Source: Acidimicrobiales bacterium (GTDB lineage: Bacteria > Actinomycetota > Acidimicrobiia > Acidimicrobiales > UBA8592). From it: a DNA stretch of 64,000 bases. The stretch covers positions 11,534-75,533 of the forward strand of contig CBDHFJ010000134.1 of NCBI GenBank assembly GCA_965262315.1, given 5' to 3'. The first letter of the stretch is position 1. Every line of letters starts with the position of its first letter. Below are positions 4,113 through 36,348 of the stretch, one piece after another. The position numbers and the translations under genes are program-made. Under the pieces are notes generated by a model that saw nothing but the letters and a program-made list of their open reading frames with translations, was not told the DNA's origin and did not search any database.

Positions 4113-4145
4113 TCTCGGGCATCCAGGACCAAATCGATCCGGCCG

Positions 4146-6131: not shown

Positions 6132-6197
6132 CGCAACCAGCCCGAATCCGCTGGACGATCGACCGAGCCACCGTCGACGCGAGAACGTACCGATCGA

Positions 6198-9100: not shown

Positions 9101-10271
9101 TCGCGTCAAACTTGTGGTTGTGACATCTGGCGCACGAAACGGTAAGACCCAGGAACGCCTTGCTAAACACATTGATCGCATCATCGGTGAATCGGACCTT
9201 TTCTTCCATCGCATCGGTCGGCGTGAAACCGTGGAAAACCATACGCCAATGCGCCGTCGCCACTTGGGATTCGTTGATTCCCTGTTCTTCGTTGATGCGA
9301 GGCGACTGGAGCAAATCCCCCGCGATGTGCTCTCGCACCATTTGGTCGTATGGAACATCCGCATTAAGCGATCGGATCAAATGGTCGCGGTAGTAGTGAG
9401 CGCCAACGATTCTGGGGTCGCCTTCGCTGCCGTGCGATTCGGCGTAGCGGATCCAGTCCATCCAGTGTCGCGCCCAACGTTCACCAAAGTGCTGCGAATC
9501 GAGCAATCGATCGACGTACGATTCGTACGCGTCCTCCGACGGATCGTTTGCGAAATTTGAAACCTCTTCGGGCGTGGGTGGCAGCCCGATCAACGCGAAA
9601 GAAAGACGCCTCGCCAAAACGGTCCGGTCCGCGAGTCCGGCGGGCGACAACCCCTCGTCACTCAGCTTGACCTGAATAAAACGATCGATCGGATGTCGCG
9701 ATCCGCGCTGTCCGACGGGAGCTGGAACACTTGGTCGAACGATCGGCTGAAAACTCCACCATCGCTTTCGCTTCTCGCGAATCGCCTCCCATGAAGTCGA
9801 TTCGGCGAGGACTTCCGCCGTCGGCGGCTTGGTGCGAGGATCGGGTGCGCCCATGGACATCCACTCTTCGAAGTCCGCGATCACACGATCGCTAAGCTTC
9901 GGTCCGCCCTCGGGCATTTCGAGGCCGTCGATCTCGTGGCGAATGACCTTCACGAGCAAGCTATCGCGGGGCGTATCGGAAATCACCGAACCGGATTGCC
10001 CACCCCGAAGAAGTGCGTCACGGTGATCGAGCGACAAATCGGATTCGCTGGTCTCCGCCGTGTTGTGGCACTCGTAACAGTGCTCGACGAAAACCGGACG
10101 AATCCGGCGCTCGAAAAAATCGATCTCGTCTGGTGTCGGTTCGGCTGCCGGGCTGGTGAGCGAAAAAACAGCCACAAACAGAACCATCAGGAAGGCGTGT
10201 CGCACGATCAGAGGGATCCTTAAAGTCGCGGGCAGGGTACGCTCCATTGTAAGCAATCGCCGCCGATGCAA
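6198..10271 (-). pseudogene. PSCyt1 / PSCyt2(DUF1549) / PSD1(DUF1553) / LamG-like giant exported planctomycete protein, split into four ORFs by three 1-nt frame breaks
   Basis: ORFs 7479..10271, 7187..7642, 6664..7320 and 6198..6836 read as one ~1350-aa protein. In order it has: a TM/signal, [19 protein letters not shown] (CxxCH), [31 protein letters not shown], ..DP(E)[15 protein letters not shown].., ARIEWMWRQALGRPPT, a LamG-like block KTLVA.VQLDDVKQSGGGVMTVQ..FDSIVFAE, and the terminal FNMKEFIYVR. Frame switches lie at ~7586-7589 (GGGG run), ~7255-7275 and ~6815-6836. The ORF opens with TTG 10271; ATG 10247 is a likelier start. Confidence 0.8.
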
Positions 10272-10350
10272 CTCGGCATCTCATCCGATAAGATTGAAGC
10301 ACTGGTGCGATCCAGACACTTGCTTCAACGCCCCCCAAAACGAGGTTCTT

Positions 10351-11625
10351 ATGGCACTGATGATGCGCTGTCGACACTACGGACTGCTGGCTGTGCTCGC
10401 GACGGCGATGATCGCAGATTGTGTTGCCGAGGAACACCGATTCGTCCTCTCCAGCGTGAAGTCCAACGCCAACGAAGAAACGTTCGATCTTGACGGGGTC
10501 GTGCCGGATGAAATCGCGTCGCGATGGAAAATAGAAATGCGGACGCTGCACGGCGGCAAACAGGAAGGCGTCCGCCTGATCTCGATCGACAACGGTACGA
10601 TCACCGTCGCCGTCGTCCCGACTCGCGGGATGAGCATCCTGGACGTGAAGGATTCGAAGACCGGCGAGCGGATTTTCGGTTGGGACTCGCCCGTGCAGGA
10701 AGTGGTTCATCCGAGCCATATCGACTTTGAAAGCCGCGGCGGGCTCGGATGGCTGGAAGGATTCAATGAGTGGATGGTTCGGTGTGGGTTGGAGTTTGCG
10801 GGCCATCCCGGGAAAGACAAGTTCATCAACAACACCGGCGACGAAGCCGAGATGGACCTGACACTGCATGGAAAGATCGGCAACATTCCCGCATCCGAGG
10901 TGGAGTTGACTGTGCAAAAAGAGGCTCCGCACCAAGTCACACTTCGCGGCGTCGTTTCCGAGCGGCAGTTCTATGGGCCCAAGCTCAAACTGACGACAGA
11001 GCTTTCAATGCTGCCCGACTCTCGATCGCTAGAACTGCATGACACGATCACCAACGAGGGCGCTTCGGACCAGGAGTACCAGGTGATCTATCACACGAAT
11101 TTCGGTGTCCCGATCCTGGAAAAAGATGCAAAGGTGGTTGTGGCGGCAAAAGAAATCTGGCCGATGAACGAAACCGCGGCGGAAGGGATCAACGAATTCG
11201 ATCGGTACGGCGCACCGCAAGTTGATTTCGTTGAACAAGTCTACCTGGCGACACCACATTCGGACTCCCGCGGCGAAACCACCGCCGTGCTACACGACGC
11301 AGCGGTCCGTCGTGGTGCGTCAATAACATGGTCCACGGATACGCTCCCCTACCTGACGATTTGGAAGAACACGGCGGCGCTTCGAGACGGCTACGTGACG
11401 GGGATCGAACCGGGGAGCGGATTCCCCTTCAATCGGCGCGTCGAACGACACTACGGACGCGTCCCCAAACTCGCCCCCGGCGATTCCGAGTCGTTTGACC
11501 TGACGTTTACCTTCCTGCCGACCGGCGACGATATCAAACAAGCCGTCATGAAAATCGAACAACTATCTTCGAATCGATCGCCGATCGTGCACACAAGCCC
11601 GCCCGCAAACCCATTTCCGGAATGA
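10351..11625 (+). CDS. exported DUF4432 / aldose-1-epimerase-like (mutarotase fold) protein
   Basis: ORF 10156..11625 trimmed to ATG 10351, giving the signal peptide MALMMRCRHYGLLAVLATAMIADCVA and avoiding overlap with the divergent gene. The body resembles DUF4432/mutarotase-like proteins (LHGGKQEGV, TLHGKIGNIPA); this assignment is from memory. The stop overlaps the next start (ATGA 11622-11625). Confidence 0.5.
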   Translation: MALMMRCRHYGLLAVLATAMIADCVAEEHRFVLSSVKSNANEETFDLDGVVPDEIASRWKIEMRTLHGGKQEGVRLISIDNGTITVAVVPTRGMSILDVKDSKTGERIFGWDSPVQEVVHPSHIDFESRGGLGWLEGFNEWMVRCGLEFAGHPGKDKFINNTGDEAEMDLTLHGKIGNIPASEVELTVQKEAPHQVTLRGVVSERQFYGPKLKLTTELSMLPDSRSLELHDTITNEGASDQEYQVIYHTNFGVPILEKDAKVVVAAKEIWPMNETAAEGINEFDRYGAPQVDFVEQVYLATPHSDSRGETTAVLHDAAVRRGASITWSTDTLPYLTIWKNTAALRDGYVTGIEPGSGFPFNRRVERHYGRVPKLAPGDSESFDLTFTFLPTGDDIKQAVMKIEQLSSNRSPIVHTSPPANPFPE

Positions 11626-13106
11626 TGTTGGAACATCGAATACGGAAACCCCAGTTTCGAAGCGCGATGGCATGCCGCGCTGTCCTGCTCGTGGCAGGAG
11701 TACTTGTATCCCCGGCATCCGCGCAATCAACACGTGAAGAGGTCACAGCCGCGATGCATCGCGCCGTGACGTTCTTTCGTAAGAACGCCTCCGCCCACGG
11801 CGGCTACGTCTATCAAATCAGTGCCGATCTCTCCCGGCGCGAAGGGGAGGGCAGGGTGGGGAAGACCACCGCCTGGATCGAACCTCCGGCGACGCCGAGT
11901 GTGGGGATGGCGTATCTGAGTGCGTATCGCAGGTGCGGCGATCCAATGCTGTTGGATGCGGCGAAAGAGACGGCATCCGCCCTCGTCCGCGGGCAACTAC
12001 GATCCGGCGGCTGGGACAATCGAATCGAGTTCGATCCAACGGATCGTGCGAAGTACTCGTATCGCGTGGACTCCAGGACAGACAAGAAGACCCACAACAC
12101 GACGACGTTTGACGATGACAAGTCGCAGTCGGCGATTCGATTCTTGATGCAACTTGATCGAGAACTCGGCTTCGGTGACCCGGCAATCCACCGTTGCGTT
12201 ATCTACGCGCTCGATGCGACAACGAAAGCCCAGTATTCAAACGGCGCGTGGCCACAGCGATATAGCGAATTCCGCGAACCTTCCGGCTCCGAGCCGCTGA
12301 AAGCGTCGATTCCCGATTCGTGGCCACGGACTTACCCGGCAAAGAGATATGCGGACTACTACACGTTGAACGATAACACGCTTAGCGATTTGATCGTGAC
12401 GATGCTAGACGCATGGGAAACCTACCAAGATTCACGTTACCTCGATTCCGCAATACGCGGCGGCGAGTTCTTGTTGCGAGCCCAGCTACCGGAACCACAA
12501 CCGGGTTGGGCACAGCAATATGACCAGAACATGCACCCCGCCTGGGCTCGCAAGTTCGAACCGCCCGCAATCAGCGGCGGCGAATCGCAAGGCGTGATGC
12601 GGACACTGATGACACTCTATCGCCGAACCGCGGCCGAGACGGACAACGCCGAACGATTCCTGGAGCCGATTCCGCGTGCGATCGCCTACTTTCGCCGGTC
12701 CCTGCTGGATGACGGTCGGTTGGCGAGGTTTTACGAGATGGAGACCAACCGTCCCCTGTTCTTCACGACGGATTACGAACTCGTGTACACGACGCACGAC
12801 TTGCCGACGCATTACGGATTTATCGTGACATCGAAGCTGGACCCGATCGAAAAGGAACTCGGCAAACTTCGACGTACCGACGTCGGCGATCGATGGCCGG
12901 GCCAGTCGAGGGGAACACGAGACCGGTCGACAGAGTTTGACCGGGAGGTGACGCAATTGATCCTCAAGTTGGATCCACGTGGCGCTTGGGTGGAACCCGG
13001 GAAGCTTCGTTATCACGGTGCCGGCGACACGACGACCCACGTCATTCGCAGTGACACGTTTGCCAAGAACCTGCGGACGCTGGCCGAATGGCTGGCGGCG
13101 AAATGA
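11622..13106 (+). CDS. exported alpha/alpha-toroid protein, candidate PL10 (PelA/Pel-15E-like) pectate-lyase family member
   Basis: 494 aa with signal peptide MACRAVLLVAGVLVSPASAQ. Repeated G-G-W/aromatic motifs: HGGYVYQ, RSGGWDNR, SNGAWPQRY. TTFDDDKSQSAIRFL resembles the PL10 block xTxDNxAT..E.RFL as I remember it. Confidence 0.45.
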   Translation: MMLEHRIRKPQFRSAMACRAVLLVAGVLVSPASAQSTREEVTAAMHRAVTFFRKNASAHGGYVYQISADLSRREGEGRVGKTTAWIEPPATPSVGMAYLSAYRRCGDPMLLDAAKETASALVRGQLRSGGWDNRIEFDPTDRAKYSYRVDSRTDKKTHNTTTFDDDKSQSAIRFLMQLDRELGFGDPAIHRCVIYALDATTKAQYSNGAWPQRYSEFREPSGSEPLKASIPDSWPRTYPAKRYADYYTLNDNTLSDLIVTMLDAWETYQDSRYLDSAIRGGEFLLRAQLPEPQPGWAQQYDQNMHPAWARKFEPPAISGGESQGVMRTLMTLYRRTAAETDNAERFLEPIPRAIAYFRRSLLDDGRLARFYEMETNRPLFFTTDYELVYTTHDLPTHYGFIVTSKLDPIEKELGKLRRTDVGDRWPGQSRGTRDRSTEFDREVTQLILKLDPRGAWVEPGKLRYHGAGDTTTHVIRSDTFAKNLRTLAEWLAAK

Positions 13107-13130
13107 ATCGGCGCAACATGAATCGACGGG

Positions 13131-13163
13131 GAAATCGACAGAGAAATCGACAGAGAAATCGGA
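13131..13163. repeat. 12-bp tandem repeat gaaatcgacaga x2 plus a partial third copy, in the gap between convergent genes
   Basis: Units at 13131-13142, 13143-13154 and 13155-13163 (gaaatcgga). Related (a/g)aatcg(a/g) words also occur at 13105-13127. Confidence 0.9.
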
Positions 13164-13194
13164 TGCCCACGATGACCGGCGAAACGAGTGGACA

Positions 13195-15423
13195 TCAGGT
13201 CAAGGTCGCCGCACGAAGTCGCAGTGCGTTTGCAATCACAGAGACGCTACTGAAGCTCATCGCGGCCGCGGCAATCATTGGGCTGAGCAGCACGCCCAGC
13301 AGCGGATAGAGCAGCCCGGCGGCAACCGGGATCCCCAACGCGTTGTACACAAAGGCGAAGAACAGGTTTTGCCGGATGTTGCGCATCGTCTTGCGGCTAA
13401 GATGACTCGCCGCCGCGACACCGCGAAGATCACCACCGACGAGCGTCACACCGGCCGATTCGATGGCCACACCCGTTCCGGTCCCCATCGCAATACCAAC
13501 ATTTGCCTCCGCCAAGGCGGGAGCATCGTTGATTCCGTCACCGGCCATCGCAACCACTTGACCTGCGTCCTTCAGACGCTTCACGAAATGATGTTTGTCT
13601 TCCGGTGAGACACTGGCATGAAATTCATCGATGCCAAGTTCTTCGGCGACCGCCCTGGCAGTTGGTTCCGCGTCACCAGTTAGCATCACCACGCTTAAGC
13701 CGAGTTCGTGTAGCGTCTCGAGCGCCGCCGGAGTGCTTTCCTTGATGGGATCGGTGATGGCCATGATGGCGGCGAGCTGGCCGTCGATCGCGACATAGAT
13801 CACCGTTGCTCCTTGCGATTGATGCACGGTTGCTCGCTCGCGTCCCCATTCGACGCGTGCGATCGACCGCTCCTCAAGCAAGTCCCCATGCCCCATCAGG
13901 ACTTGATGGTTGTCAACGATCCCTTGAACACCGCCACCGGTGATACTGTCGAAGTCGATCACATCGGGGAGTGCTATTTCGTCCGACTCCGCTCGCCGAA
14001 CGACGGCCCGAGCTAATGGATGTTCGCTGCGGGCTTCCACCGCGGCTGCCAATCTCAGCACTTCGTTCTCAGACCAGTCCGCCAACGTCTCCACCGCGGT
14101 CACTTCGGGACGACCTTTCGTCAAAGTGCCCGTCTTATCGACGACGACGGTATTGACTTTCTCCATCACTTCCAGAACTTCGGCGTTCTTGATCAGCACA
14201 CCTTCTTGCGCACCACGACCCACGCCAACCATCACGGACATCGGCGTTGCCAGTCCGAGCGCGCACGGGCAGGCAATGATCAACACCGCTACCGCCGCGA
14301 CGAATGCGTGAGCCAGCCGGGGCTCCGGCCCGAACCATGCCCACCCGATGAACGCCGTCATCGAACAAACAACGACCGCCGGAACAAAATACTGAGCGAC
14401 ACCATCGACCAGCTTTTGGATCGGGGCGCGGCTTCGCTGTGCTTCCGCCACCATCTGCACGATGCGATGCAACACGGTTTCCCCGCCTACTCCGGAAACC
14501 ATCATGACCAAAGCCCCTGTCTGGTTCAGCGTTCCACCGGTGATCTCGTCGCCCACTCGCTTCATCACCGGGATCGGCTCACCGGTCAGCATCGATTCAT
14601 CCACACTGCTGCTGCCGCTAACAACTTTGCCATCCACCGGAACCTTCTCGCCCGGTCGCACCTGCAACCGATCGCCCTTTTGGACATCTTCGAGCGCAAC
14701 CTCTGTCTCACCCTGATCTGTCAACAAATGAGCCGTTTCCGGCGCAAGCTGCATCAGCTCGCGAATCGCATTGCCCGTGTGTTGTCGCGCGCGTAATTCT
14801 AATACCTGCCCCAGCAACACCAGTGTGATGATCACGGCAGCCGCCTCAAAATAAAGCGGCGGTTTCCCGTTCTCGAAAAACGCGTCCGGAACCAGGGTGG
14901 GAAATAGTACGACGCACAAACTAAACAAAAATGCGGCCAGCGTTCCCAATGTGATGAGCGAGAACATATTCAGACTTCGCGAGCGAAAAGAGTTGATCCC
15001 GCGAACCAACAATGGCCAGCCGCACCAGAATACGACGGGTGTCGCCAAGGCGAGCTGCACCCAGCCGAAAGCCGTCGTTGACATTCCTTCGGCCGGATTC
15101 CAGCCAACCATTGGCCCCATCGCCAGAACGAGCAACGGCAGCGATAAGACCACGCCGACCCAAAACCTTTGCAACATGTCACCGCAGGAGCCATCATCGC
15201 CGAGGTCGGTCACATCGACGTACTTCGGCTCCAAATCCATCCCGCAAATCGGGCAATCCCCCGGTCCGATTTGTTCGATCTCCAGGTGCATCGGACAGGT
15301 GTAGATCGCATCCGTCCCGGCCGATGCTTTCCGCACATCGGATGAGGGACCGCCGTGATGCGAGCAACAACTGCGTTCACCATCCATCGCTTCGGTCCGA
15401 TCTGCATCTCGCTGAACAGCCAT
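13195..15423 (-). CDS. copA: Cu(I)/Ag(I)-translocating P1B-type ATPase
   Basis: 742 aa. Motifs: [31 protein letters not shown], plus the TM signatures YN (FAFVYNALG) and MSFSS. N-terminus: CCSHHGG plus [24 protein letters not shown]. Confidence 0.9.
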
Positions 15424-15586
15424 AGCCGTGACGTCTTCCGGTTCAACCTCGAATCATTGCCAGCACGTTCTCCCACAGAAAGAATGTTTTCGTGTGAAAG
15501 AGACAATCTGGCCGGCGTGGCATCGACCATCATCCGGCAAAACCCATACCGTATGCCGCGGACCGTGAAATGCCAATTGCTGGGCC

Positions 15587-15632
15587 GGAAAAGGGGTCCG
15601 CGCCCCCTTTTCCTGGCGCCCCCTTTTCCTGG
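15587..15632. repeat. 10-bp-stem hairpin whose 3' arm lies in an exactly duplicated 16-mer (cgcccccttttcctgg x2)
   Basis: GGAAAAGGGG (15587-15596) pairs with CCCCTTTTCC (15604-13). The 16-mer at 15601-15616 is repeated exactly at 15617-15632, giving a second possible arm. It lies between the CDF stop (15656) and the copA start (15423). There is no clear U-tract on the minus strand. Confidence 0.6.
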
Positions 15633-15655
15633 CACCGCAACTTTTCAAACCAAGC

Positions 15656-16564
15656 CTAATCCATCGCATCCAACTGCGGCCGTGTGTGTGGTTCGATGTG
15701 GACGTGCACATCACGGACTCGCGGCATTTCGGCCAACAACTTGTTCTTGACGTCGTGTCCGATGCGGTGACCCTCATCGACCGTCAATCGTCCGTCGACT
15801 TCGACATGAATCTCGATGAAGTACTCGAGACCACTTTTTCGGACCCGCAGTTTTTCGACCTCATCGACTCCCGCGACGGTTTGAGCGATGAGCCGAACGT
15901 TTGCGACCATCGATTCGTCGGCCTGTTGATCCATCAACTCGCGTGCGGTCGAAAGAAACAGCTGGATCCCGGTGAACACAAGAATTCCGCACACACAAAA
16001 CGCGGCGATCGGATCGATGTAGGGCGCGGCGGCGCCCGTGTAGGGTGTGGCCAACAACGCGACCGCAACGACGCCCGATCCCAGCGCGTCGCTGCGGTGG
16101 TCCCAGGCTGTCGCTTTCAGCGCCGCGGAGTTCAGTCGTGTCGCGACACGGCGTGTGTACTGGTAGATCACTTCTTTGACGATCGCGCACGCCGCCGCGA
16201 TGAAGCCGGCGACAGCCGCGGGCGGTTTTAGTTCACCCCAAAATCGCTGAACTGTTTCGATCCCCAGTAGGCCGGCGCTAAAGGCTACCAACAGCGCGAC
16301 GCTCAGCCCGGCAATCGATTCGGCTTTGGTGTGTCCGTACGGATGATCTTCGTCTTCATCGATTTGCGCGACGCTGAGCGCACCTCGGACGGCCATCGCA
16401 CTTGCGACATCGCCGATCGAGTTGACGGCGTCGGCCAGTAGGGCAGAGGAACCTGTGACGACGCCGCCGACCAACTTCACGACGACCAACACCGAGTTGA
16501 CGCCGAGACCCCAAACGGCCGCCCGGCTGGCGTCCAGATAGACACGCTCGCGTCCGGCGATCAC
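15656..16564 (-). CDS. cation diffusion facilitator (CDF) family divalent-metal efflux transporter
   Basis: 302 aa. LLADAVNSIGDV and DEDHPYGHTKAESIAG are CDF signature regions. Six hydrophobic helices are followed by a C-terminal cytoplasmic domain. Confidence 0.85.
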   Translation of the reverse strand: MIAGRERVYLDASRAAVWGLGVNSVLVVVKLVGGVVTGSSALLADAVNSIGDVASAMAVRGALSVAQIDEDEDHPYGHTKAESIAGLSVALLVAFSAGLLGIETVQRFWGELKPPAAVAGFIAAACAIVKEVIYQYTRRVATRLNSAALKATAWDHRSDALGSGVVAVALLATPYTGAAAPYIDPIAAFCVCGILVFTGIQLFLSTARELMDQQADESMVANVRLIAQTVAGVDEVEKLRVRKSGLEYFIEIHVEVDGRLTVDEGHRIGHDVKNKLLAEMPRVRDVHVHIEPHTRPQLDAMD

Positions 16565-16585
16565 CGCTTCGTCACGAGGGGACTG

Positions 16586-18874
16586 ATGGACAATGGGAGC
16601 TGGATCGGTATCAGGTGGAAAGGTTACCGGCGGATGTCCCTGATTCTAACGGTCTCCCGGCCGTTTTGTGACCTACGGTTTTGCGTACTCCGCACGCAAC
16701 CCCATGCGTTTTCGCGCCCCGTCAAGCTTCAAATCCGCCCAAAACTCATGTCATCCGCAAATCCCGCAAAACCCGGTTTCGCATCCGTATCGCCGATTCC
16801 GTCGGATGTGAAAGGCCGATCGATGTTCTGGTTCGCCGCCACGACACTGTTGGGCGCGTTCTTGGTGTTCCAGGTCCAGCCGGTGATCAGCAAGTGTGTG
16901 TTGCCGTGGTTCGGGGGGACGCCGGCGGTGTGGACGACGTGCATGTTGTTTTTCCAACTGCTGTTATTTGGTGGCTACTTGTATGCTCACCTGCTGCGGT
17001 CCTTCCTCAAGCCAACCGGACAGGCGTTGGTGCATCTGACGCTGCTTTGCTGCGCGGCACTGTTGCTACCGATCGAACCGTCCGATGCATGGAAACCCGG
17101 CGGGAACGAGTCGCCTACGATCTATTTGCTGTGGATGCTTGCGGCCCATGTGGGGCTGCCCTATTTCGTATTATCCAGCACGGGTCCGTTGATCCAAGCG
17201 TGGCTCAGTTATCACGATGACAGTGATCGTGTTTATCGATTGTACGCGCTGTCCAACGCCGGCTCGCTGTTCGCGCTGCTCAGTTACCCGTTTGTTGTCG
17301 AACCGATGCTATCGGTTTCCAGCCAGAGCACGGCCTGGTCGTTGATGTTTTGTGGTTTCGTGCTTGTGCAAGGGGTCGTGGCGATTGGCTTGTTTCGCGT
17401 CGGAGATCGCGCGGCGGACAAGATGGTCGCGACGGCGACGGAATCACCCGATCGGATGGGACCGAATTGGCAGACGCGAGTGTGCTGGATCGCGCTTCCG
17501 GCTCTGGCATCGACGATGTTGTTGTGCGTGACGAATCACGTTTGCCAGGACATCGCTGTGGTACCGTTTCTGTGGGTACTGCCGCTTAGCCTTTATTTGT
17601 GTAGCTTCATCATTTGTTTCGATTCGCCGCAGTGGTATCGGCCAAAGTTGACGGCGGTGATCACGCTGATCGCGATCGCCGCGATTCAACTGAAGGGATA
17701 CGTGCCGAACCAGTTGACCCTGATTACGGAAGCCGTCGCATTCATGGTTTTGCTGATGGGCGTTTGCTTGTTGTGTCACGGCGAAGTCGCCAGACTGAAA
17801 CCCCCGACTCGACATCTGACTCAGTACTACGCGATGTTGTCCGGCGGGGGAGCAATCGGTGGTCTGATTGTCGCCATCCTTTGCCCCCTGTTACTGGACA
17901 GCTATGCCGAATTGACAATCGGCGTCAACTTGGTCACGACGCTCACGTTCTTGCTGTACTTCGCTTGCAGCGGATGGAAGACAACCTCTTACGATTGGTC
18001 CGAGGCATACCGTCTTCGGTACTGCGCCGTCGCGATCGCGGTCGTCCCGATCATCTACGGTCTGACCACGGCCAATGAAGCGACGATCGCGCGGGAACGT
18101 AACTTCTTCGGAGTTTTGCGTGTCAATGTCGATGAACACGGAAAACACTTGATTCACGGCAGCACGATCCACGGCATGCAGCGCACCGGTGAACACGCGA
18201 TGCAGCCGACGACCTACTACGGACACCAAAGCGGCGTGGGGCTGGCGATCGAGGAGCTGCAGCGAAGCAAAGATTCCTTGCGAATCGGTGTGGTCGGCCT
18301 GGGGTGTGGTGTCTTGACCGCGTACGGACGCCCCAGCGATCAGTACGACGTGATCGAGATCAACCCGGCCGTCTTGGACATCGCTCAAACGCATTTCACG
18401 TTCATGCAGAATTGCCCATCAACGATTCGTCATCACCTCGGTGACGGGCGTTTGGTTTTGGAACGAATGACGGGCGAGAAATTCGACATCCTGGTTTTGG
18501 ACGCGTTTAGCAGCGACGCGATTCCGGCGCACCTACTGACTCGCGAAGCATTCGAATTGTTTCAAGACCGCTTGCCGGCGGACGGGGTCTTGGCCGTCCA
18601 TGTCTCCAATAAACACCTCGACCTGATCCCGCTCGTTCATCGAATGAGTCACGACGCGGGATTGACGAGCCGCGTGGTGCGAAACGAAATGGACCGAGAG
18701 ATATGTATCTCGGGCGCTCATTGGGTGCTTGTCACGCGCGAGGGCCACGAGATTTGGCAGCGAGAATCGATGGCCGAGTCGCAACCCGCGACGGCGGAAG
18801 AATTGGCTCGTGCGCCGCTTTGGACCGATCAAAACCACAACTTGGTCAGCGTCCTGCGAATCTGGGGCGAGTGA
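16586..18874 (+). CDS. membrane-fused spermidine-synthase-like protein (polytopic N-terminal domain + AdoMet-fold C-terminal domain)
   Basis: 762-aa ORF. About 10 hydrophobic helices are followed by VVGLGCGVLTAY..VIEINPAV..GDGR..DILVLDAFSSDAIPAHLLT. The true start is probably ATG 16748 (MSSANPAK) or later. The TGA stop at 18872-18874 sits at the sequence discontinuity. Confidence 0.7.
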   Translation: MDNGSWIGIRWKGYRRMSLILTVSRPFCDLRFCVLRTQPHAFSRPVKLQIRPKLMSSANPAKPGFASVSPIPSDVKGRSMFWFAATTLLGAFLVFQVQPVISKCVLPWFGGTPAVWTTCMLFFQLLLFGGYLYAHLLRSFLKPTGQALVHLTLLCCAALLLPIEPSDAWKPGGNESPTIYLLWMLAAHVGLPYFVLSSTGPLIQAWLSYHDDSDRVYRLYALSNAGSLFALLSYPFVVEPMLSVSSQSTAWSLMFCGFVLVQGVVAIGLFRVGDRAADKMVATATESPDRMGPNWQTRVCWIALPALASTMLLCVTNHVCQDIAVVPFLWVLPLSLYLCSFIICFDSPQWYRPKLTAVITLIAIAAIQLKGYVPNQLTLITEAVAFMVLLMGVCLLCHGEVARLKPPTRHLTQYYAMLSGGGAIGGLIVAILCPLLLDSYAELTIGVNLVTTLTFLLYFACSGWKTTSYDWSEAYRLRYCAVAIAVVPIIYGLTTANEATIARERNFFGVLRVNVDEHGKHLIHGSTIHGMQRTGEHAMQPTTYYGHQSGVGLAIEELQRSKDSLRIGVVGLGCGVLTAYGRPSDQYDVIEINPAVLDIAQTHFTFMQNCPSTIRHHLGDGRLVLERMTGEKFDILVLDAFSSDAIPAHLLTREAFELFQDRLPADGVLAVHVSNKHLDLIPLVHRMSHDAGLTSRVVRNEMDREICISGAHWVLVTREGHEIWQRESMAESQPATAEELARAPLWTDQNHNLVSVLRIWGE

Positions 18875-18880
18875 TTCTCG
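18865..18880. other. sequence discontinuity (contig join / chimeric junction) between planctomycete-type and actinobacterial-type DNA
   Basis: Base composition, codon style and gene families all change abruptly here. The minus-strand histidine kinase loses its catalytic half at this point. Confidence 0.8.
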
Positions 18881-19710
18881 TCCGCCGCCACGACGGTGCC
18901 GTCCAGCCGGGTCGATGCCGCAACCTCCTCGACCAGCAGGTCGAGCCGGAGGGGGGCCAGCCGGGGGACGGCCTGGCCGGCCTCCAGCCGCGCCATCTCC
19001 AACAACGAGTTCACGCCGCTTCCGGCCCGTTCGGTGGCCACCTGGATCTCCGCCAGGGACCGCTGGTACTCCCACGCCTCCCGTTCCCGCGACAACGCGT
19101 GGGAGGCAGACGCCTGGATCACCGCGAGCGGGGTCCGGAGCTCGTGGGCGGCGTCGGCGATGAAATCCCGTTGCTGGCCCATGGCCGCCTTCGCCGGCTC
19201 GAGTGACCGCCCTGCCAGGCGCCAGGCGACGAACGCGGCAGCGGCGATCATCCCGATGGCCGCCAGCGAGATGCGCCACTTCAGGCCCGAGATGTCGCTG
19301 ACGAACCCGTCCATCTCGATCGCGGCCACCAGGAAGTCGTCGTTCTGCAGGTGGCGGGTCCCGGCCATCCACGGCCCGTTCTGGTCGAACCGGAAGTAGT
19401 TCCGGCCCCCGTAGGAGGCGTTGGCATAGGCGAACAGCGGCGGTTCGACCCAGGTGTCACCGATCGGCTCGAAGCTCTCGTCAGCGGTGTTGACGTACCA
19501 GGTGTTGTTGGCGAGCCAGCCCTCAGGGGCGAGCTGCTCCAGGAAGACGTCCGAGATGAGTGTGTCCAGGTCGCGCTCGGCGGACTGGACGATCCGCTCC
19601 TCGCCCGCCCGCGCGGCGAGCACCGCCATCACGATCACCGCGACGGCCAACACCGCGGTGAACAGCACCGTCAGCTGGACCCGGGTCCGGGCGAGGTTCA
19701 TGCCCGACAA
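18875..19710 (-). CDS. sensor histidine kinase, 3' (HATPase) half missing because of the junction
   Basis: N-terminal TM, extracytoplasmic loop and second TM, then HisKA with AAHELRTPLAVI. No N/G1/G2 ATPase boxes. Meaningful sequence ends at ..RLDGTVVAADE; the rest of track ORF 18829..19710 (NHSPQIRRTLTKLWF) is read-through into the other genome. TTG 19710 or ATG 19701 start. Confidence 0.75.
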
Positions 19711-19732
19711 CGGTACGGGGTGGTCGGGGCGG

Positions 19733-20401
19733 TCATCCGGTCAACTGGTAGCCGACCCCGCGGACCGTGTCGATCGGCACCTCCACGCCGGACACGGCCA
19801 GCTTGCGCCGCAGATTGGCGATGTGGACGTCGACCACGTTCGACAGGCCGTCGTAGTTGGCGTCCCACACGTGCTCGAGCAACTCGGCGCGGGTCAGGAC
19901 GGCGCCCGGGCGCCGCATCAGGTACTCGAGGAGGCTGAACTCGCGTGCGGTCAGGGGCACGACGATCGCGCCCCGCCATGCCGTGTGTGACGCAGGGTCC
20001 AAGCGCAGGTCGCCGACCTCCAGGATCGGCCCCGTGGTGTCCGGCGGCCGCCGCAGCAGTGCCCGGACGCGAGCCGCGAGCTCCAGGTAGTCGAACGGCT
20101 TCGTCAGGTAGTCGTCGGCACCGGCATCGAGTCCGGCCACCTTGTCGTTCAGACCGTCCCGGGCCGTCAGCATCAACACCGGGACACGGACCTGGCGGTC
20201 CCGCAGGCGACGACACAGCGTGACCCCGTCCCCGTCGGGCAGACCGAGATCGAGGATCACCAGGTCGTAGTCGGCATGGTCGACCGCGTGGGATGCGCCG
20301 GCCGAGGTCGTCTCCAGATCGACGGCGTAGCCCTCCTCGGAGAGACCCCGGACGAGGATCTGTCCGAGCGCGATGTCGTCCTCGACCACCAGCAGCCGCA
20401 T
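19733..20401 (-). CDS. OmpR/PhoB-family response regulator
   Basis: 222 aa. MRLLVVEDD ... LVILDLGLPDGDG receiver domain, then the winged-helix LTAREFSLLEYLMRRPG..VDVHIANLRRKL..TVRGVGYQL. Confidence 0.9.
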   Translation of the reverse strand: MRLLVVEDDIALGQILVRGLSEEGYAVDLETTSAGASHAVDHADYDLVILDLGLPDGDGVTLCRRLRDRQVRVPVLMLTARDGLNDKVAGLDAGADDYLTKPFDYLELAARVRALLRRPPDTTGPILEVGDLRLDPASHTAWRGAIVVPLTAREFSLLEYLMRRPGAVLTRAELLEHVWDANYDGLSNVVDVHIANLRRKLAVSGVEVPIDTVRGVGYQLTG

Positions 20402-20486
20402 CGGACCATGGTGGCATCACGTCGATGAAGTGAACGTGAAGGCCGCCTTCACGATCACCTCACCGTGCCGTTCGTACGGTCGGCCC

Positions 20487-21749
20487 ATGGCATCGGAATC
20501 CGCTCGCATCGCCCACCTTCTCCGCCGCGCCACGTTCGGGCCCGTACCCGGTCAGGTCGAGGAGCTGACCGACGCAGGCTACGACGGGGTGCTCGCCGGC
20601 CTCCTGGGAGAGAGCCCCCTCCCCCTCTTCGACGACCCGGTCACCGACGTGCCCGACGTGGCGAACACCGGCGAGGGCGAGGACGAGCTGATCTCGTGGT
20701 GGATCGAACGGATGCGGTCGCCATGGTCGGGTCTGCACGAGAAGATGGTGTGGTTCTGGCACGGGCACTTCACCAGCTCGATCGAGAAGTGCCCGGCACG
20801 GGCGCTGGCCGGCCAACACCGACTGGTGCGGCGCCACGCGCTGGGCAACTTCCGCAGCCTCGCCCGGGAGATGGTGACTGACCCGGCGATGTTGATCTAC
20901 CTCGACGCCGCCGGGTCCCAGGGGTTCGCGCCGAACGAGAATCTGGCGCGCGAGCTGATGGAACTGTTCACGGTCGGGGCAGGCAACTACAGCGAGGCCG
21001 ACGTGAAGGCTGCCGCACGGGCGCTGTCGGGTTGGTGGGTCGACTGGGACGCGGCCGAGGCCGGCAGGGACGAGGGCGCCGCCTACCCCGGCGCGATCCG
21101 GTTCCTCGGCCGCCGCGGCCGATTCACGCCGGCCGAGATCGTCGACGCGTTGTGTGACCTCGACGCGTGTGCAACCCACGTGGCCGCGGCGCTGCACCGG
21201 TTCCTGGTCGGTACCGAGCCCGGCCCCGAACGGCTGGAGGAGCTCGGCGCGCTGTTCCGGGCGGAACGCCTGGAGATCCTTCCGCTGGTGGCCGAGATCC
21301 TGCGTTCGGCGGACTTCGAGGCGTCGATCCACGCTCGACCCCGCTTCCCCATCGAGTGGTTCGTCCATGTCGCCAACGTGTTGGAGGTACCCGAGATCAC
21401 CGAGGAACACCTCTGGGTGCTGGTCGAACTCGACCAGCTGCCCTTCCTCCCTCCGAACGTCGCCGGCTGGCCCGTTGGGGAGCGGTGGGTGTCGCCGAGC
21501 CTGGTCCTCGCACGGGGAACCGCGCTGTTCACGATCGCCGACTCGTTGGGAGACGACGGGCCGACCACCTTCGGGTTCGACGAGGACGACCCCATCCCCG
21601 AGGTCCTGCGCCGTTGCGGCATCCACGACCCGGCGGACGAGACGATCGCCGCGCTCGACGAGGCCTACTGGGCCCCCTTCGCGGCGGAGGAGGTCAACGC
21701 CCTCCTTGTCTACCTGGCCCTGAACTCACCCGATGTCGTCCTGGCCTGA
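20487..21749 (+). CDS. DUF1800 domain protein
   Basis: ORF 20373..21749 trimmed to ATG 20487 (MASESARIAHLLRRATFGP, the typical family N-terminus). Also has WFWHGHFTSS. Immediately precedes a DUF1501 gene, the canonical pairing. Confidence 0.8.
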   Translation: MASESARIAHLLRRATFGPVPGQVEELTDAGYDGVLAGLLGESPLPLFDDPVTDVPDVANTGEGEDELISWWIERMRSPWSGLHEKMVWFWHGHFTSSIEKCPARALAGQHRLVRRHALGNFRSLAREMVTDPAMLIYLDAAGSQGFAPNENLARELMELFTVGAGNYSEADVKAAARALSGWWVDWDAAEAGRDEGAAYPGAIRFLGRRGRFTPAEIVDALCDLDACATHVAAALHRFLVGTEPGPERLEELGALFRAERLEILPLVAEILRSADFEASIHARPRFPIEWFVHVANVLEVPEITEEHLWVLVELDQLPFLPPNVAGWPVGERWVSPSLVLARGTALFTIADSLGDDGPTTFGFDEDDPIPEVLRRCGIHDPADETIAALDEAYWAPFAAEEVNALLVYLALNSPDVVLA

Positions 21750-21776
21750 CGCCGACCACCGAAACCGAGGAGCCCC

Positions 21777-23084
21777 ATGTCCCCCGCAGCCAATGACCCT
21801 GCCCCGGCCCACCCCCTGGACCGACGTCGCTTCCTGCAGTCCCTCGCGCTGGGTGCCGGCGGTGCGGCGCTCGGCCTGAGCGCCTGCTCCGACGGCGGAG
21901 ACGGGCTGCCATTCGCCAGCGCTGCCGACGAGCCGGCACCACCGACGGCCACACCGGTGCCACCCGCCCCCGTCACAGCCGTCGGACCGTCGGAGGACCG
22001 GACACTCGTGGTCATCGAGCTCGAAGGCGGCAATGACGGCCTCGACACGGTGATCCCTCACAACGACCCCCGATACGTCGACCTCAGGGCGACGGTCGGC
22101 GTCGACCCGGAGACGGTGCTGCCCATCGATGACGAGGTCGGGCTCAACCCCAATCTCGCCGGTCTGCACGCGTCAGGCGTGGCGGTGCTCGAAGGGGTCG
22201 GCATGGCCGACCCGGACCTGTCGCACTTCGAGTCGTCACGTCGCTGGTGGACCGGTGACGTCACCGGTCAGGCCACGTTCTCGACCGGCTTCCTGGGTCG
22301 GCTCTGTGACCAGCTCGCCGCCGAGGAGCCCGTCACCGGCGTCTCGGTCGGCCGTGGAGCCTCGCCCACGATGCGCAGCGACCACGCCGTCACCCTGTCG
22401 GTGCCCGACCCGTGGGCCGGTGGCGGCCTGACCGCCACCGACTGGCCGTTCGCCATGGCCGCCCGCCAGGGTCTGGCCACCATGGCATCGAGCGCGGATG
22501 GTGCCCCACTGCGGGCAGTCACCACCGAGAACATGGGACGGGCGCTGGATTTCCTGGACGTCCTGGGCTCGCTCCCGGACCGCGAGACCGACGCCTACCC
22601 GGGCAGCCAGATCTCGTATCAGCTCCAGACCTGCGCCCGCCTCCTGGCCGGCGACACCGGCATCCGCGTCCTCCACGTCCCGTGGGGGTCCTTCGACACC
22701 CACGACGACCATCGGGGCTCGCACGACTACCAGCTCAGGGAGCTCGACGAAGCCCTGACGGCCTTCCGCAACGACCTGGCCGACCTGGGGATGGCCGAGA
22801 CCACGCTGATCGCCACCACCTCGGAGTTCGGACGACGCCCTGCCGAGAACAGCAACGGCACCGACCACGGCACCGCGTCGACGATGCTCCTGGCGGGTCC
22901 GGTCACCGCCGGCCGTCACGGCGACGCTCCCTCGCTGCGAGCACTCGACGATGACGGCAATCTCGTCGCCACCGTGGGCATGGACGAGTACTACGCCACC
23001 CTGGCCGAGGCCTGGTTCGGCGTTGCGGCCGGCGACGTGCTGCCGGGCGCACCGGTCCCGATCCCGGGACTGATCCACGCCTGA
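21777..23084 (+). CDS. DUF1501 domain protein with Tat signal and lipobox-like Cys
   Basis: 435 aa. LDRRRFLQSLALGAGGAALGLSAC, then GGNDGLDTVIP, GSFDTHDDH and SEFGRRP. GAGGAG RBS upstream. Confidence 0.85.
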   Translation: MSPAANDPAPAHPLDRRRFLQSLALGAGGAALGLSACSDGGDGLPFASAADEPAPPTATPVPPAPVTAVGPSEDRTLVVIELEGGNDGLDTVIPHNDPRYVDLRATVGVDPETVLPIDDEVGLNPNLAGLHASGVAVLEGVGMADPDLSHFESSRRWWTGDVTGQATFSTGFLGRLCDQLAAEEPVTGVSVGRGASPTMRSDHAVTLSVPDPWAGGGLTATDWPFAMAARQGLATMASSADGAPLRAVTTENMGRALDFLDVLGSLPDRETDAYPGSQISYQLQTCARLLAGDTGIRVLHVPWGSFDTHDDHRGSHDYQLRELDEALTAFRNDLADLGMAETTLIATTSEFGRRPAENSNGTDHGTASTMLLAGPVTAGRHGDAPSLRALDDDGNLVATVGMDEYYATLAEAWFGVAAGDVLPGAPVPIPGLIHA

Positions 23085-23127
23085 TCCGCCGGAGGAGGGA
23101 CCCGCCGAGCGGGCCCACGGCGCCACG

Positions 23128-23159
23128 TACTCCCTGGGGAGTAGGGGCGAAGACTCCCT
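23128..23159. promoter_or_regulatory. candidate operator: palindrome TACTCCC-TG-GGGAGTA plus a third ACTCCCT half-site
   Basis: Palindrome at 23128-23143 and a direct copy of ACTCCCT at 23153-23159, 45-75 nt upstream of the ABC/two-component operon start (23202). Its function is inference only. Confidence 0.25.
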
Positions 23160-23201
23160 CGGGGGGATTCGCTCGAGGCCTCGATTCCGCACGATGGGTG
23201 C

Positions 23202-24122
23202 ATGATCGAAGTCACCCACCTCACCAAGCGCTACGGCCAGACCCTGGCCGTCAACGACCTCAGCTTCACCGTCGAGCCGGGCATCGTCACCGGCTTCCTG
23301 GGCCCCAACGGATCCGGCAAGTCCACAACGATGCGCATGATCCTCGGCCTCGACGCCCCCACCTCGGGCACGGCCACCGTCGGCGGCCGCCCGCTGGTGA
23401 CCCACGAACGGCCCCTCACCTCGTTGGGCTTCCTGCTCGACGCCGGCGCCGTGCACCCCACCCGGTCCGCCTACGACCACCTTCGGGCGTTGGCGGTCAC
23501 GAACAACATCCCGACCAGCCGGGTCGACGAGGTCCTCGACATCGTGGGCCTCGGTCAGGTCGGACGCCGCCGCAGCGGCGGCTTCTCGCTGGGCATGGGC
23601 CAGCGCCTCGGCATCGCCGCCGCCCTGCTCGGCGACCCCGAGGTCGTCATGTTGGACGAGCCGGTCAACGGCCTCGACCCCGAGGGCATCCTGTGGATCC
23701 GCCACCTCCTGCAGGACCTGGCCGCCGAAGGTCGCACCGTGTTCGTCTCGTCGCACCTGATGAGCGAGATGGAGCTCATGGCCGAGCACTTCGTCATCAT
23801 CGGCCAGGGCGCCCTCATTCGGGACATCTCCGCCGCCGACCTGCGCGCCATGGCGGTCGGCGAGAAGACCCACGTGCGGGCCGACCGCCTGAACGACCTG
23901 GTCTCGCTGATGCGGGCCGACGGTGTCGAAGTCGTCTCGGCCGACCGAGAGACCGTGAGCGTCAGCGGCCTCGACGCCGCAGCGATCGGCGCCATCGCCC
24001 GTGACCACGGCATCGCACTGACCTCGCTGATCCCCGAACAGCGCTCGCTCGAGGACGTCTTCATGAGCCTCACCGCCGATGCCGTCCAATACCACGGCGG
24101 CTCGAACCGGACGGCTGCCTGA
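23202..24122 (+). CDS. ABC transporter ATP-binding protein (ABC-2 exporter type)
   Basis: 306 aa. Walker A GPNGSGKSTT, signature-like FSLGMGQR, Walker B VVMLDEPVNGLDP. ATGA overlap with the permease gene. Confidence 0.9.
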   Translation: MIEVTHLTKRYGQTLAVNDLSFTVEPGIVTGFLGPNGSGKSTTMRMILGLDAPTSGTATVGGRPLVTHERPLTSLGFLLDAGAVHPTRSAYDHLRALAVTNNIPTSRVDEVLDIVGLGQVGRRRSGGFSLGMGQRLGIAAALLGDPEVVMLDEPVNGLDPEGILWIRHLLQDLAAEGRTVFVSSHLMSEMELMAEHFVIIGQGALIRDISAADLRAMAVGEKTHVRADRLNDLVSLMRADGVEVVSADRETVSVSGLDAAAIGAIARDHGIALTSLIPEQRSLEDVFMSLTADAVQYHGGSNRTAA

Positions 24123-25069
24123 TGACCGTCTCCGCCCCTTCCGCCCCTTCCTCCCCTCAGATGTCCACCCGAACCGACCACAGCGAGCACCCCATGACCA
24201 CCCTCACCCCCGTCCCCACCACGTCCACCCGGGCCACCCTGACCCCCGTCCCCACCGAGGCATCCATGTCGACCACCGCGGCTCCCCGCCCCACCACAGC
24301 GGGCAAGGTCCGCACCTGGAACGTCATCCGCAGCGAATGGATCAAGTTCTGGTCGGTCCGATCCACCTCCATCACCCTCATCGCCGCCGGCATCGCCACC
24401 GTGGCCTTCGGCATGATCTTCTCGGCGGTCGTCGACTCCGACGAGCAGGCCGGCCCCGCCGCCTTCCTCACCGACCCGGTGGATGTCGCCCTCGGCGGCA
24501 TCGGCCTGACCGAGATGGTGATCGGCGTCCTCGGCGTGATGTTCGTCGCCGGTGAGTACTCCACCGGGCTGATCCGCACGGCGTTCGCCTCGGTCGGTCG
24601 ACGAGGCCGGGTGATCCGGGCCAAGTCCGCCGTCATCGCCGCCTCGGTCCTCGGCGTGGCCCTCGTGGCCGTGACCGCCGCCATCGCCGCCGGTCAGGCC
24701 GTGTACGCAGGCAACGAACCCACCGTCCCGGTCACCGACGTCCTCGATGTCATCATGGGGACCAGCCTGTACCTGACCGGTATCGCCCTGATCGGCGTGG
24801 CCCTGGGCTTTCTGCTCCGGTCGACCGCAGCAGGCATCGGCACCCTGGTCGGCGGCGTCTTCATCGGCCCCAACCTGTTGAACCTGCTGCCCGACAGCGT
24901 GACCGACAGCTTCATGAAGTACCTGCCCTCCGAAGCCGGCTCTGCGATGATGACCCAGGTGTCCGATCCCGACCTGCTGAGCCGAGGCGCCGGCTATGCC
25001 GTCTTCGCCGCCTGGGTCGTCGGCCTCCTGACCCTGGCAACCGTGCTGGTCAATCGGCGAGATGCCTGA
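24122..25069 (+). CDS. ABC-2 family transporter permease with Thr/Pro-rich N-terminal extension
   Basis: 315 aa. The first ~75 aa are low-complexity, with TLTPVPT repeated twice. Then WNVIRSEWIKFWSVRST and six hydrophobic segments. The start could be an internal Met. Confidence 0.75.
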   Translation: MTVSAPSAPSSPQMSTRTDHSEHPMTTLTPVPTTSTRATLTPVPTEASMSTTAAPRPTTAGKVRTWNVIRSEWIKFWSVRSTSITLIAAGIATVAFGMIFSAVVDSDEQAGPAAFLTDPVDVALGGIGLTEMVIGVLGVMFVAGEYSTGLIRTAFASVGRRGRVIRAKSAVIAASVLGVALVAVTAAIAAGQAVYAGNEPTVPVTDVLDVIMGTSLYLTGIALIGVALGFLLRSTAAGIGTLVGGVFIGPNLLNLLPDSVTDSFMKYLPSEAGSAMMTQVSDPDLLSRGAGYAVFAAWVVGLLTLATVLVNRRDA

Positions 25070-26231
25070 CCGCCCGGCCTCGGTCCTGACCTGGCTGCGA
25101 GCCGACCCCCGACGGGTCGACGTGCTCCTGGCCCTGGTCACCGTCGGGCTGAGCGCCCTCCTGATCGGCAACGCCCCCCAGGACTTCGACACCGGCTGGC
25201 CCGAAGTGGCCGCCGGTGTCGGCGCGTTCCTCTTCGTCCTCGCCCGGCGCACCCAGCCCCTACTGCTCCTGATCGTCGGTCTGGCCTGGGGCGGCATCCA
25301 CGTCGTCGTCCTCGAGCGACCCACCCCGATCTTCTTCGCAATCCTGGTCCTGTTGGTGACGACCTGCATCCGCCTCACCCGCGGGCAGGCGATCCTCCTG
25401 GGTTCGGTGGTGGCCGGCCTCCTCTACACGTTCGGGCTGCTGGCCAACGACGCCGAGTTCGCCGACAGTCGGTCCGTGATCGGGATCGTCTGGGCGGCGG
25501 GCGCCGTCGGCATCGCCGACGCGGTCCGGTCGTGGCGGGACTACCGAGCATCCGCCGACGCGCAGGTGCGGTCAGCGGTGCTCGCCGCCGAGGCCGAAAC
25601 CCGCCAGCAGGTCAGTGAGGAGCGTCTCGCCATCGCCCGTGAGCTCCACGATCTCCTGGCGCACAACCTGTCGGTCATGAACGTCCAGACCGGCGCGGCG
25701 CTCCATCTCCTCCGCTCGGACCCGGACCAGGCCGAACAGTCCCTGACCGCCGCACGTGACGCTGGTCGCTCGGTCCTGGACGAGCTCCGCGAGCTCCTGG
25801 CCGTCCTGCGCCACCACGACGAGGACGCTCCCACCGCATCGCTGCCCACCGTCGATCAGCTCGACAGCCTGGTCGAGACCATGCGGGGGGCCGGGCTCGA
25901 TGTGACCTGGAGCCGCTCGGGCGCCCCGCGCCCCCTCGCGCCGGCCGTGTCCTTGGCGGCGTACCGGATCACGCAGGAAGCGCTCACGAACGCGGCCAAA
26001 CACGGGACGGGCACCGCCGACCTGGCCACGAACTGGGACCCGGTCGGCCTCACCATCAGTGTGGTGAACCCCGCAGGTGCCCGAGGCGGCACCGGGGCCG
26101 GGCACGGCCTCATCGGCATGCGCGAACGGGCCACGACCAACGGTGGACGCCTCAGTGCCGAGTCCACCGACGACCGATTCGCGGTGACCGCCTGGCTTCC
26201 GGCGGCCGCAGACCAGGAGACCCCGCCGTGA
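25062..26231 (+). CDS. NarL-class (HisKA_3) sensor histidine kinase
   Basis: 389 aa. Membrane N-terminal half, H-box IARELHDLLAHNLSVM, and ATPase end GHGLIGMRERATTNGGRL. Overlaps both neighbouring genes. Confidence 0.85.
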   Translation: MPDRPASVLTWLRADPRRVDVLLALVTVGLSALLIGNAPQDFDTGWPEVAAGVGAFLFVLARRTQPLLLLIVGLAWGGIHVVVLERPTPIFFAILVLLVTTCIRLTRGQAILLGSVVAGLLYTFGLLANDAEFADSRSVIGIVWAAGAVGIADAVRSWRDYRASADAQVRSAVLAAEAETRQQVSEERLAIARELHDLLAHNLSVMNVQTGAALHLLRSDPDQAEQSLTAARDAGRSVLDELRELLAVLRHHDEDAPTASLPTVDQLDSLVETMRGAGLDVTWSRSGAPRPLAPAVSLAAYRITQEALTNAAKHGTGTADLATNWDPVGLTISVVNPAGARGGTGAGHGLIGMRERATTNGGRLSAESTDDRFAVTAWLPAAADQETPP

Positions 26232-26896
26232 GCATCCGAGTGGTTCTCGTCGACGACCAGGCCCTCATCCGCGCCGGGTTCCGAGCCATCATCGACTCGG
26301 CGGCCGACCTGGAGGTCGTCGGCGAGGCAGACGACGGCGCGCAGGCCGTCGACCTGGTGCGCTCCGCTCGGGCCGACGTGGTCCTCATGGACATCCGGAT
26401 GCCCGGTCGCGACGGCATCGAGACCACCCGCGCCATCACCGACGACGATGACCTCGCAGGCGTCCGAGTGATCGTGCTGACCACCTTCGAACTGGACGAG
26501 TACGTCGTCGCGGCGATGGGCGCAGGGGCCAGCGGCTTCCTGGACAAGGGTGTCGACCCCGCCGTCCTGCTCGACGCCATCCGAGTCGTCGCCGCCGGCG
26601 ACGCCCTGCTCACCCCCAAGGCCACCCGGGCGCTGCTGGCATCCCTCGGCGACGAACCGACACCGAGCGTCGTGGACGAGGAGACCGTCGGGCACCTCAC
26701 CGCCCGAGAGCGCGAGGTCGTCGGCCTCGTCGGGCGAGGCCTGTCCAACGACGAGATCGCCGACGCCCTCTTCCTGTCGCCGCTGACGGCCAAGACCCAC
26801 GTCAGCAGGGCGATGACCAAGCTGCACGCGCGCGATCGGGCACAGCTGGTGGCGCTTGCCTTCAAGACGGGCCTGACCCGGCTCGACGAGCTCTGA
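26228..26896 (+). CDS. LuxR/NarL-family response regulator
   Basis: 222 aa. GTGA start overlap. IRVVLVDDQALIR ... VVLMDIRMPGRDG receiver domain, then the HTH LTAREREVVGLVGRGLSNDEIADALFLSPLTAKTHV. Confidence 0.9.
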   Translation: MSIRVVLVDDQALIRAGFRAIIDSAADLEVVGEADDGAQAVDLVRSARADVVLMDIRMPGRDGIETTRAITDDDDLAGVRVIVLTTFELDEYVVAAMGAGASGFLDKGVDPAVLLDAIRVVAAGDALLTPKATRALLASLGDEPTPSVVDEETVGHLTAREREVVGLVGRGLSNDEIADALFLSPLTAKTHVSRAMTKLHARDRAQLVALAFKTGLTRLDEL

Positions 26897-27066
26897 ACAC
26901 GGCGGTCCTCGGCCGCCCAGACGCTTCGACAGGTCGTCGACAGGGAGCGCCCTGATCGGTCGACGCCTCAAGAACCCTCCGCGTGGGCCGACAGGGTAAG
27001 CCTCAGCGGATTCGGCGGCCACGTCCCCCGGGGAACCACCCCAAGCCGTCGCAGCGGAGGGACACA

Positions 27067-27999: not shown

Positions 28000-28000
28000 C

Positions 28001-31128: not shown

Positions 31129-31141
31129 GGAGGCGGCCCAG

Positions 31142-36328: not shown

Positions 36329-36348
36329 GTCCCCGAATCCCGCAGCGA

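Follow-up and report, generated by a model that had tools for sequence, protein, structure and literature searches.

A very probable inter-phylum chimeric contig: an abrupt Pirellulaceae-to-Acidimicrobiales junction within a sensor-kinase gene

Genomic islands can show composition steps of about 10 points of guanine-plus-cytosine (GC) content, and horizontally acquired islands are recognised by such a sharp step together with foreign-looking genes on one side of it. Chimeric contigs produced by misassembly are a recognised, relatively rare class of errors in metagenome-assembled genomes (MAGs) (PMC8201837). Here, we analysed a junction at about position 18,875 of a 64,000-nt stretch (the window) of contig CBDHFJ010000134.1, assembly GCA_965262315.1, where planctomycete-type DNA meets actinobacterial-type DNA inside the reading frame of a sensor histidine kinase. 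The contig is 117,391 bp long, and both blocks of DNA extend to the ends of the window. Judging from the assembled sequence, this junction is in all probability an artefact, an inter-phylum chimeric contig.

The locus resembles the inter-genome chimeric contigs described in the GUNC paper (PMC8201837) in that one contig combines two sources, lineage and composition switch at a single point, the join interrupts a gene, and biological boundary elements are absent. It differs from them in that the arms are long, with minimum lengths of 19 and 45 kb, and derive from different phyla, so that no extended shared sequence is expected as the cause of the join, and in that one arm ends exactly at a stop codon. 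A likeness to horizontally acquired islands also exists in the step and the foreign-looking genes; however, integrase, tRNA and direct repeats are missing here, the content is collinear chromosome and not cargo, neither block reverts to the composition of the other within the window, and both are wholly unameliorated. As for the interrupted gene, it has the transmembrane segments, the HisKA H-box (HELRTPL) and the adjoining regulator of a classical HisKA + HATPase_c kinase paired with an OmpR-type regulator, but HATPase_c is gone and is replaced by 15 residues antisense to an unrelated gene.

Composition and homology on the two sides

Mean GC content amounted to 0.578 to the left of the break and to 0.694 to the right of it, and the window contained 0 Ns. 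Windows of 1 kb stayed at 0.55-0.61 up to position 19,000 and at 0.66-0.73 thereafter, and those of 200 bases located the climb at ~18,750-18,900. A single change-point model gained 393 nats of log-likelihood and peaked at 18878 (2-unit support interval 18734-18905). Tetranucleotide profiles calculated in 4-kb windows were of the left type in every window up to 18,000 and of the right type from 18,001 on, the switch being made within a 2-kb step, and GC at third codon positions (GC3) of evident genes rose from 0.63-0.71 to 0.86-0.94 (~0.68 to 0.90). Since window GC, change-point gain, tetranucleotides and GC3 all shift there, the compositional step is real, sharp and far above noise. An earlier inspection of the letters and reading frames of this DNA (the first-pass annotation) had described an abrupt discontinuity at ~18,875, with moderate-GC DNA on the left and very GC-rich DNA with high GC3 on the right, and had proposed sliding-window GC, GC3 and tetranucleotide profiles as a check; all three switch at the same place, in line with that description.

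Comparison with contigs of relatives was done for both blocks. The left block was compared with L001 (ENA, 124.8 kb) and the right block with L002 (ENA, 31.5 kb) and L003 (NCBI GCA_041156825.1, 73.8 kb); two further right-block relatives, L004 and L005, with 79 % nucleotide identity, came from the ferrochelatase search described below. Window positions 3511-18870 were collinear with L001 at 75-82 % nucleotide identity, apart from clean indels, and the order of genes (DUF1501, PSCyt1/2-PSD1, DUF4432, Pec_lyase, CDF transporter and fused spermidine synthase) was identical in both; after the fused spermidine-synthase gene, L001 runs on with seven more genes. In the right block, the segments 18877-23048 and 26966-33551 were collinear with L002 at 78-81 %, and the L002 order of tad genes, DUF1501, DUF1800, response regulator and kinase is that of the right block reversed. 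Past the kinase, L002 continues with genes for ferrochelatase, Fpg and a transglycosylase. A complete kinase followed by ferrochelatase is likewise present in L003 and L004, and L005 has a partial kinase beside ferrochelatase, cut at the contig end. The collinearity of 3511-18870 with L001 and of 18877-33551 with L002 therefore makes each block an ordinary chromosome of its own lineage, stopping at 18,875.

The composition of the blocks is in agreement with this picture. Left block and L001 were similar in GC (0.578 vs 0.586) and tetranucleotides (r 0.98), as were right block and L002 (0.694 vs 0.690; r 0.99), whereas the two blocks correlated with each other at r 0.73. By these measures no amelioration was seen in either block, the composition staying that of its own lineage.

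Named matches, taken from the source names of homologous proteins, separated the blocks in the same manner. Those of the fused MFS/spermidine-synthase-like gene at the end of the left block were all Pirellulaceae/Planctomycetota at 62-68 % identity (Rubripirellula, Stieleria, Novipirellula, Rhodopirellula, Roseiconus and Pirellulaceae MAGs), and those of the kinase, all from MAGs, and of the ferrochelatase family were Acidimicrobiales/Actinomycetota. The right block also carries ordinary chromosomal genes, such as a type IIA topoisomerase A/B pair, MDMPI_N (mycothiol-type DinB) and an FrhB-family protein. The families that had been called planctomycete-typical from the sequence (PSCyt1/PSCyt2/PSD1, DUF1501 and the fused MFS/spermidine synthase) were thus all recovered on the left together with Pirellulaceae names, and the markers that had been read as actinobacterial (a tad locus with no secretin match, MDMPI_N and FrhB) were found on the right. 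When the flanks were searched separately, as had been advised, their best matches differed by phylum and led to different collinear relatives, not to one taxon.

The break itself was narrowed down by alignment. Blastn matched 15658-18870 to L001 at 80.7 % and 18877-19762 to L002 at 79 %. Anchored gapless extension against L001 gave 80 % identity up to the stop codon of the fused gene and 31 % past it; against L002 it gave 83 % down to 18877 and 30 % beyond, and ~30 % identity past each homology end is the random level. The alignment with L004 begins at 18878. Homology to relatives hence ends at 18870-18874 on the left and begins at 18877/18878 on the right. Because the left homology ends by 18874 and the right one begins at 18877, these alignments put the break between the two positions. 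No microhomology or shared k-mer at the junction was visible via the relatives, which at ~80 % identity cannot exclude one in the true parents.

The left-hand gene appears undamaged by the break. The public protein P0121 matched it at 100 %, with the public call starting at 16823 and giving 683 aa, and its closest relatives, P0122 (87 %) and P0123 (81 %), share the C-terminus ...LVSVLRIWGE. As both relatives end alike, the fused gene is complete and its TGA at 18872-18874 is the natural stop codon. It should be added that the break falls 0-2 nt past this stop codon (window 18872-18876), a position that looks non-random.

The cut kinase gene and the continuity of the contig

In the minus-strand open reading frame (ORF) at 18829-19710, HisKA was the sole domain match (PF00512, 51.9 bits, residues 179-245). 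Homologues of this kinase measure 383-408 aa (387-389 aa for the intact kinases of L002-L004) and possess HisKA and HATPase_c, the latter in almost all of the 119 other matches listed; the 3' third of the gene, i.e. HATPase_c with ~110 codons, is absent from the window. Over residues 1-276, the fragment shared 86 % identity with P0002, a 388-aa protein that includes HATPase_c. Similarity stops after ...RLDGTVVAADE, where homologues go on as ...LDEVIVSADYSLLRQAL... and the window reads NHSPQIRRTLTKLWF*. GC3 was 0.94 in the genuine 275 codons vs 0.75 in the tail. The adjoining response regulator was 91 % identical to its L002 counterpart and of equal size (222 aa). No decay was detected in the kinase fragment or the regulator, which retain 86 % and 91 % identity to L002 without frameshifts, and the truncation therefore has no evolutionary age. 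On the reading preferred below, the join itself would have created the "kinase without ATPase domain" with its 15-residue tail, and no real protein would correspond to it. The first-pass annotation had noted the same anomaly, namely a kinase with transmembrane segments and HisKA and without ATPase domain, whose sensible sequence halts at ..AADE and whose frame then reads through the stop codon of the plus-strand gene; the domain matches, the end of homologue similarity and the reverse-strand origin of the tail in the end of the left gene bear this out.

The join is present in the public record. P0001 (290 aa, chimeric tail included) is a 100 % match of the kinase ORF in NCBI and ENA; its residues are encoded on both sides of the junction, so the public gene call crosses it. 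P0001 and P0121, the latter likewise in NCBI and ENA, are each found on one contig of 117,391 bp, and seven more proteins of the window (positions 105 to 63416) are each found on exactly one 117,391-bp contig. The join is located inside a single deposited contig and is, if an error, a misassembly or an N-less scaffold join. The spanning gene call and the single 117,391-bp contig therefore exclude a record boundary and mis-binning alone.

The missing half of the kinase locus was sought through its neighbour. Among the 120 best matches listed for the L002 ferrochelatase (down to ~55 % identity), none lay on a contig of 117,391 bp. Within that listing, the half-locus is therefore not seen elsewhere on the contig, where a nearby insertion would have left it. 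This null result argues against a nearby second boundary and is still compatible with loss or a longer insert.

Searches for signatures of mobile elements were likewise negative. Neither tRNA/tmRNA nor Rfam families were found, and neither integrase, transposase nor recombinase among ~60 ORFs scanned across the whole window. Repeats around the junction were merely short and at chance level, no terminator above chance followed the left-hand stop codon, and a 7.9-kb query spanning the junction returned generic response-regulator matches only in the search for plasmid/phage similarity. The ORF, tRNA and repeat scans thus agree with the earlier remark that no tRNA, integrase, transposase or terminal repeats mark the boundary. 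Neither the 185,579 species-representative genomes nor the JGI metagenomes contained the junction 50-mer, and the left-flank 30-mer and the right-flank 33-mer were likewise missing from the genome and metagenome collections. As junction and both flanks are absent alike, the strain is merely outside those collections, which makes this weak evidence. P0001 formed a singleton cluster, present on one contig only.

Origin of the junction

The explanation that we regard as very probable on sequence grounds is that construction of the 117,391-bp contig linked the ends of two fragments, derived from unrelated genomes in a single sample. One fragment would come from a Pirellulaceae-like planctomycete and end just past the stop codon of a gene; the other would come from an Acidimicrobiales-like actinobacterium and begin partway through the gene of a sensor kinase. 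Candidate routes are an error in the assembly graph, a chimeric long read, and scaffolding or merging without Ns, and the joined molecule presumably does not exist in nature. This reading is favoured because the blocks are native-looking, unameliorated and each collinear with its own relatives, and because the blunt join cuts an undecayed gene, lacks a biological boundary element and occurs in one contig only. Several points weigh against it. The deposited contig is uninterrupted and without Ns; the argument for an artefact is drawn from the assembled sequence alone and from a 64-kb window of the 117,391-bp contig; a shared k-mer between the parents at the junction was not demonstrated; and mis-binning is reported to be commoner than misassembly (PMC8201837). 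Furthermore, a random misjoin would hit the 0-2 nt after a stop codon only ~0.2 % of the time (a post hoc figure). As to this coincidence, contig ends may favour the switch from conserved coding to strain-variable intergenic DNA.

A genuine and very recent inter-phylum transfer by illegitimate recombination, without a mobile element, would have either inserted Pirellulaceae chromosomal DNA (19 kb or more) into an Acidimicrobiales kinase gene or placed actinobacterial DNA (45 kb or more) beside a planctomycete spermidine-synthase gene. That one deposited contig contains the junction, and that a gene call crosses it, would suit such an event, as would the coincidence of the break with a gene end on one side and the habitat evidently shared by two organisms that are both in one assembly. 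We nevertheless consider it very improbable: integrase, transposase, tRNA, repeats and plasmid/phage similarity are all lacking, both blocks are long pieces of ordinary chromosome collinear with their own relatives (the right one with type IIA topoisomerase genes), amelioration is zero, neither the cut kinase nor the orphaned regulator has decayed, no second contig in any collection searched shows the junction, and no detectable ferrochelatase marks the remaining half of the broken locus on the contig. The specific proposition of a real junction formed by a recent element-free integration of tens of kb between Pirellulaceae and Acidimicrobiales, caught before amelioration and with one end at a gene boundary, appears slightly less probable still; if true, it would be a rare direct sighting of a large inter-phylum integration of chromosomal DNA without a mobile element.

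Even less credit can be given to the idea that the window was stitched at file level from two separate database records sharing a bin by mis-binning. It would account for the bluntness of the join, which leaves no more than 2 bases unassigned, and for the interruption of a gene on one side, as happens where a contig ends, but P0001 spans the junction and lies, like P0121 and the seven other proteins, on one 117,391-bp contig, and this candidate was rejected as contradicted by both facts. Least probable of all, to a degree that makes it nearly negligible, is a native low-GC (or high-GC) genomic island in one organism, with both sides of the same taxon. The size of the step is what such islands can display; yet the phylum of the best matches differs between the sides, as do the collinear relatives, host-like composition does not return within 19 kb on one side and 45 kb on the other, and a gene is cut at the boundary. 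The taxonomic split contradicts this candidate, and it was also rejected. As regards the artefact options of the first-pass annotation, assembly chimera stands, and record concatenation and pure bin contamination fall with the gene call that spans the junction on one contig. Its ranking of transfer below artefact is shared by us, given relatives undisturbed past the break, no mobile element and no amelioration.

With the chimeric contig as the preferred reading, any inference of synteny, operon structure, taxonomy, pangenome content or horizontal transfer that crosses 18,875 would be wrong; the earlier warning that synteny is unsafe across this point was justified, the sides belonging to different phyla by named matches and by collinearity. 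At contig level, checks of the bin's lineage would give a misleading answer one way or the other, and the public protein P0001 would be fictitious in its last 15 residues, an N-terminal part of a kinase followed by antisense-derived residues. The value of the finding is practical, as a data-quality flag, and its biological interest is low.

Reading frames and further features of the two blocks

Reading frames are disrupted in two genes of the left block when compared with L001. The PSCyt1/PSCyt2/PSD1 gene (7084-10271, minus strand) passes through frames -3, -1 and -2 against an intact L001 homologue of 1066 aa, changing frame near 7588, where a run of G has an additional G, and again near 7260; as it stands, the ORF ends at 930 aa with the PSD1 domain truncated. 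These breaks are due to either indel error or a pseudogene. The homologue of a 254-aa L001 gene (3948-4732, plus strand) is spread across three frames, with several single-base indels relative to L001, and has no clean ORF. On the right, all eight genes comparable with L002 (8/8) keep one frame. A GC3 frame-plot screen for frameshifts met many open frames there, in DNA of 69 % GC, and ORFs that looked ambiguous hold full-length domains by Pfam domain completeness. Altogether, 2 of ~12 left genes vs 0 of ~45 right genes are disrupted (Fisher p ~0.04, by our own arithmetic), which suggests a lower consensus quality, hence lower depth, of the left block, or real pseudogenes there. With disruptions on the left only, unequal consensus quality or read depth is suggested as supporting, not decisive, evidence on the join.

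Table 1. Coordinates of the junction, the two blocks and selected features in the window
Feature	Position	Strand	Remarks
Left block, Pirellulaceae-type (Planctomycetota) chromosomal DNA	1..18874		GC 0.578, collinear with L001
DUF1501	4800-6131	-	Domain match, 466 bits
PSCyt1/PSCyt2/PSD1	7479-10271	-	Domain matches
Fused MFS/spermidine-synthase-like gene, complete	16586..18874	+	Natural stop TGA 18872-18874
Junction	18875..18876		Two bases TT, assignable to neither parent
Kinase ORF read-through tail NHSPQIRRTLTKLWF*	18829..18876	-	Antisense to the last codons of the fused gene
Sensor histidine kinase, genuine part	18877..19701	-	275 codons, transmembrane segments + HisKA; without HATPase_c
Right block, Acidimicrobiales-type (Actinomycetota) chromosomal DNA	18877..64000		GC 0.694, collinear with L002
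OmpR-type response regulator, intact, partner of the cut kinase	19733..20401	-	Response_reg + Trans_reg_C
Tad/Flp pilus locus	26983-35404	+	RcpC/CpaB-like, T2SSE ATPase, two T2SSF, TadE-like, Tad/TadG-like

DUF1501 genes exist on both sides of the junction, the one listed in Table 1 beside PSCyt/PSD1 and another at 21777-23084 (plus strand) beside DUF1800, with family matches of 466 bits on the left vs 96 bits on the right. They are unlikely to have caused the join, given their distances of 13 kb and 3 kb to it.

Pec_lyase and CDF-transporter genes, adjacent in L001, are separated in the left block by an extra 2.5-kb piece (13100-15657) with a composition like that of the block, in which a P-type heavy-metal ATPase with HMBD is encoded (13195-15423, minus strand). 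In the right block, a cassette at 23049-26965, between the DUF1501 gene and the tad locus, has no counterpart in L002 and comprises genes for an ABC ATPase, an ABC-2-type permease-like protein, a HisKA_3 kinase and a LuxR-type regulator; it is probably ordinary strain-level variation, because all cassette genes look intact. No secretin match was obtained in the Tad/Flp locus, as expected for a single-membrane cell. ORFs of its TadE region (31699-33632) show odd GC by codon position and overlapping open frames. The type IIA topoisomerase genes are placed at 37884-42345 on the plus strand, A followed by B with a 17-nt overlap, and encode 803 and 688 aa, correspondingly.

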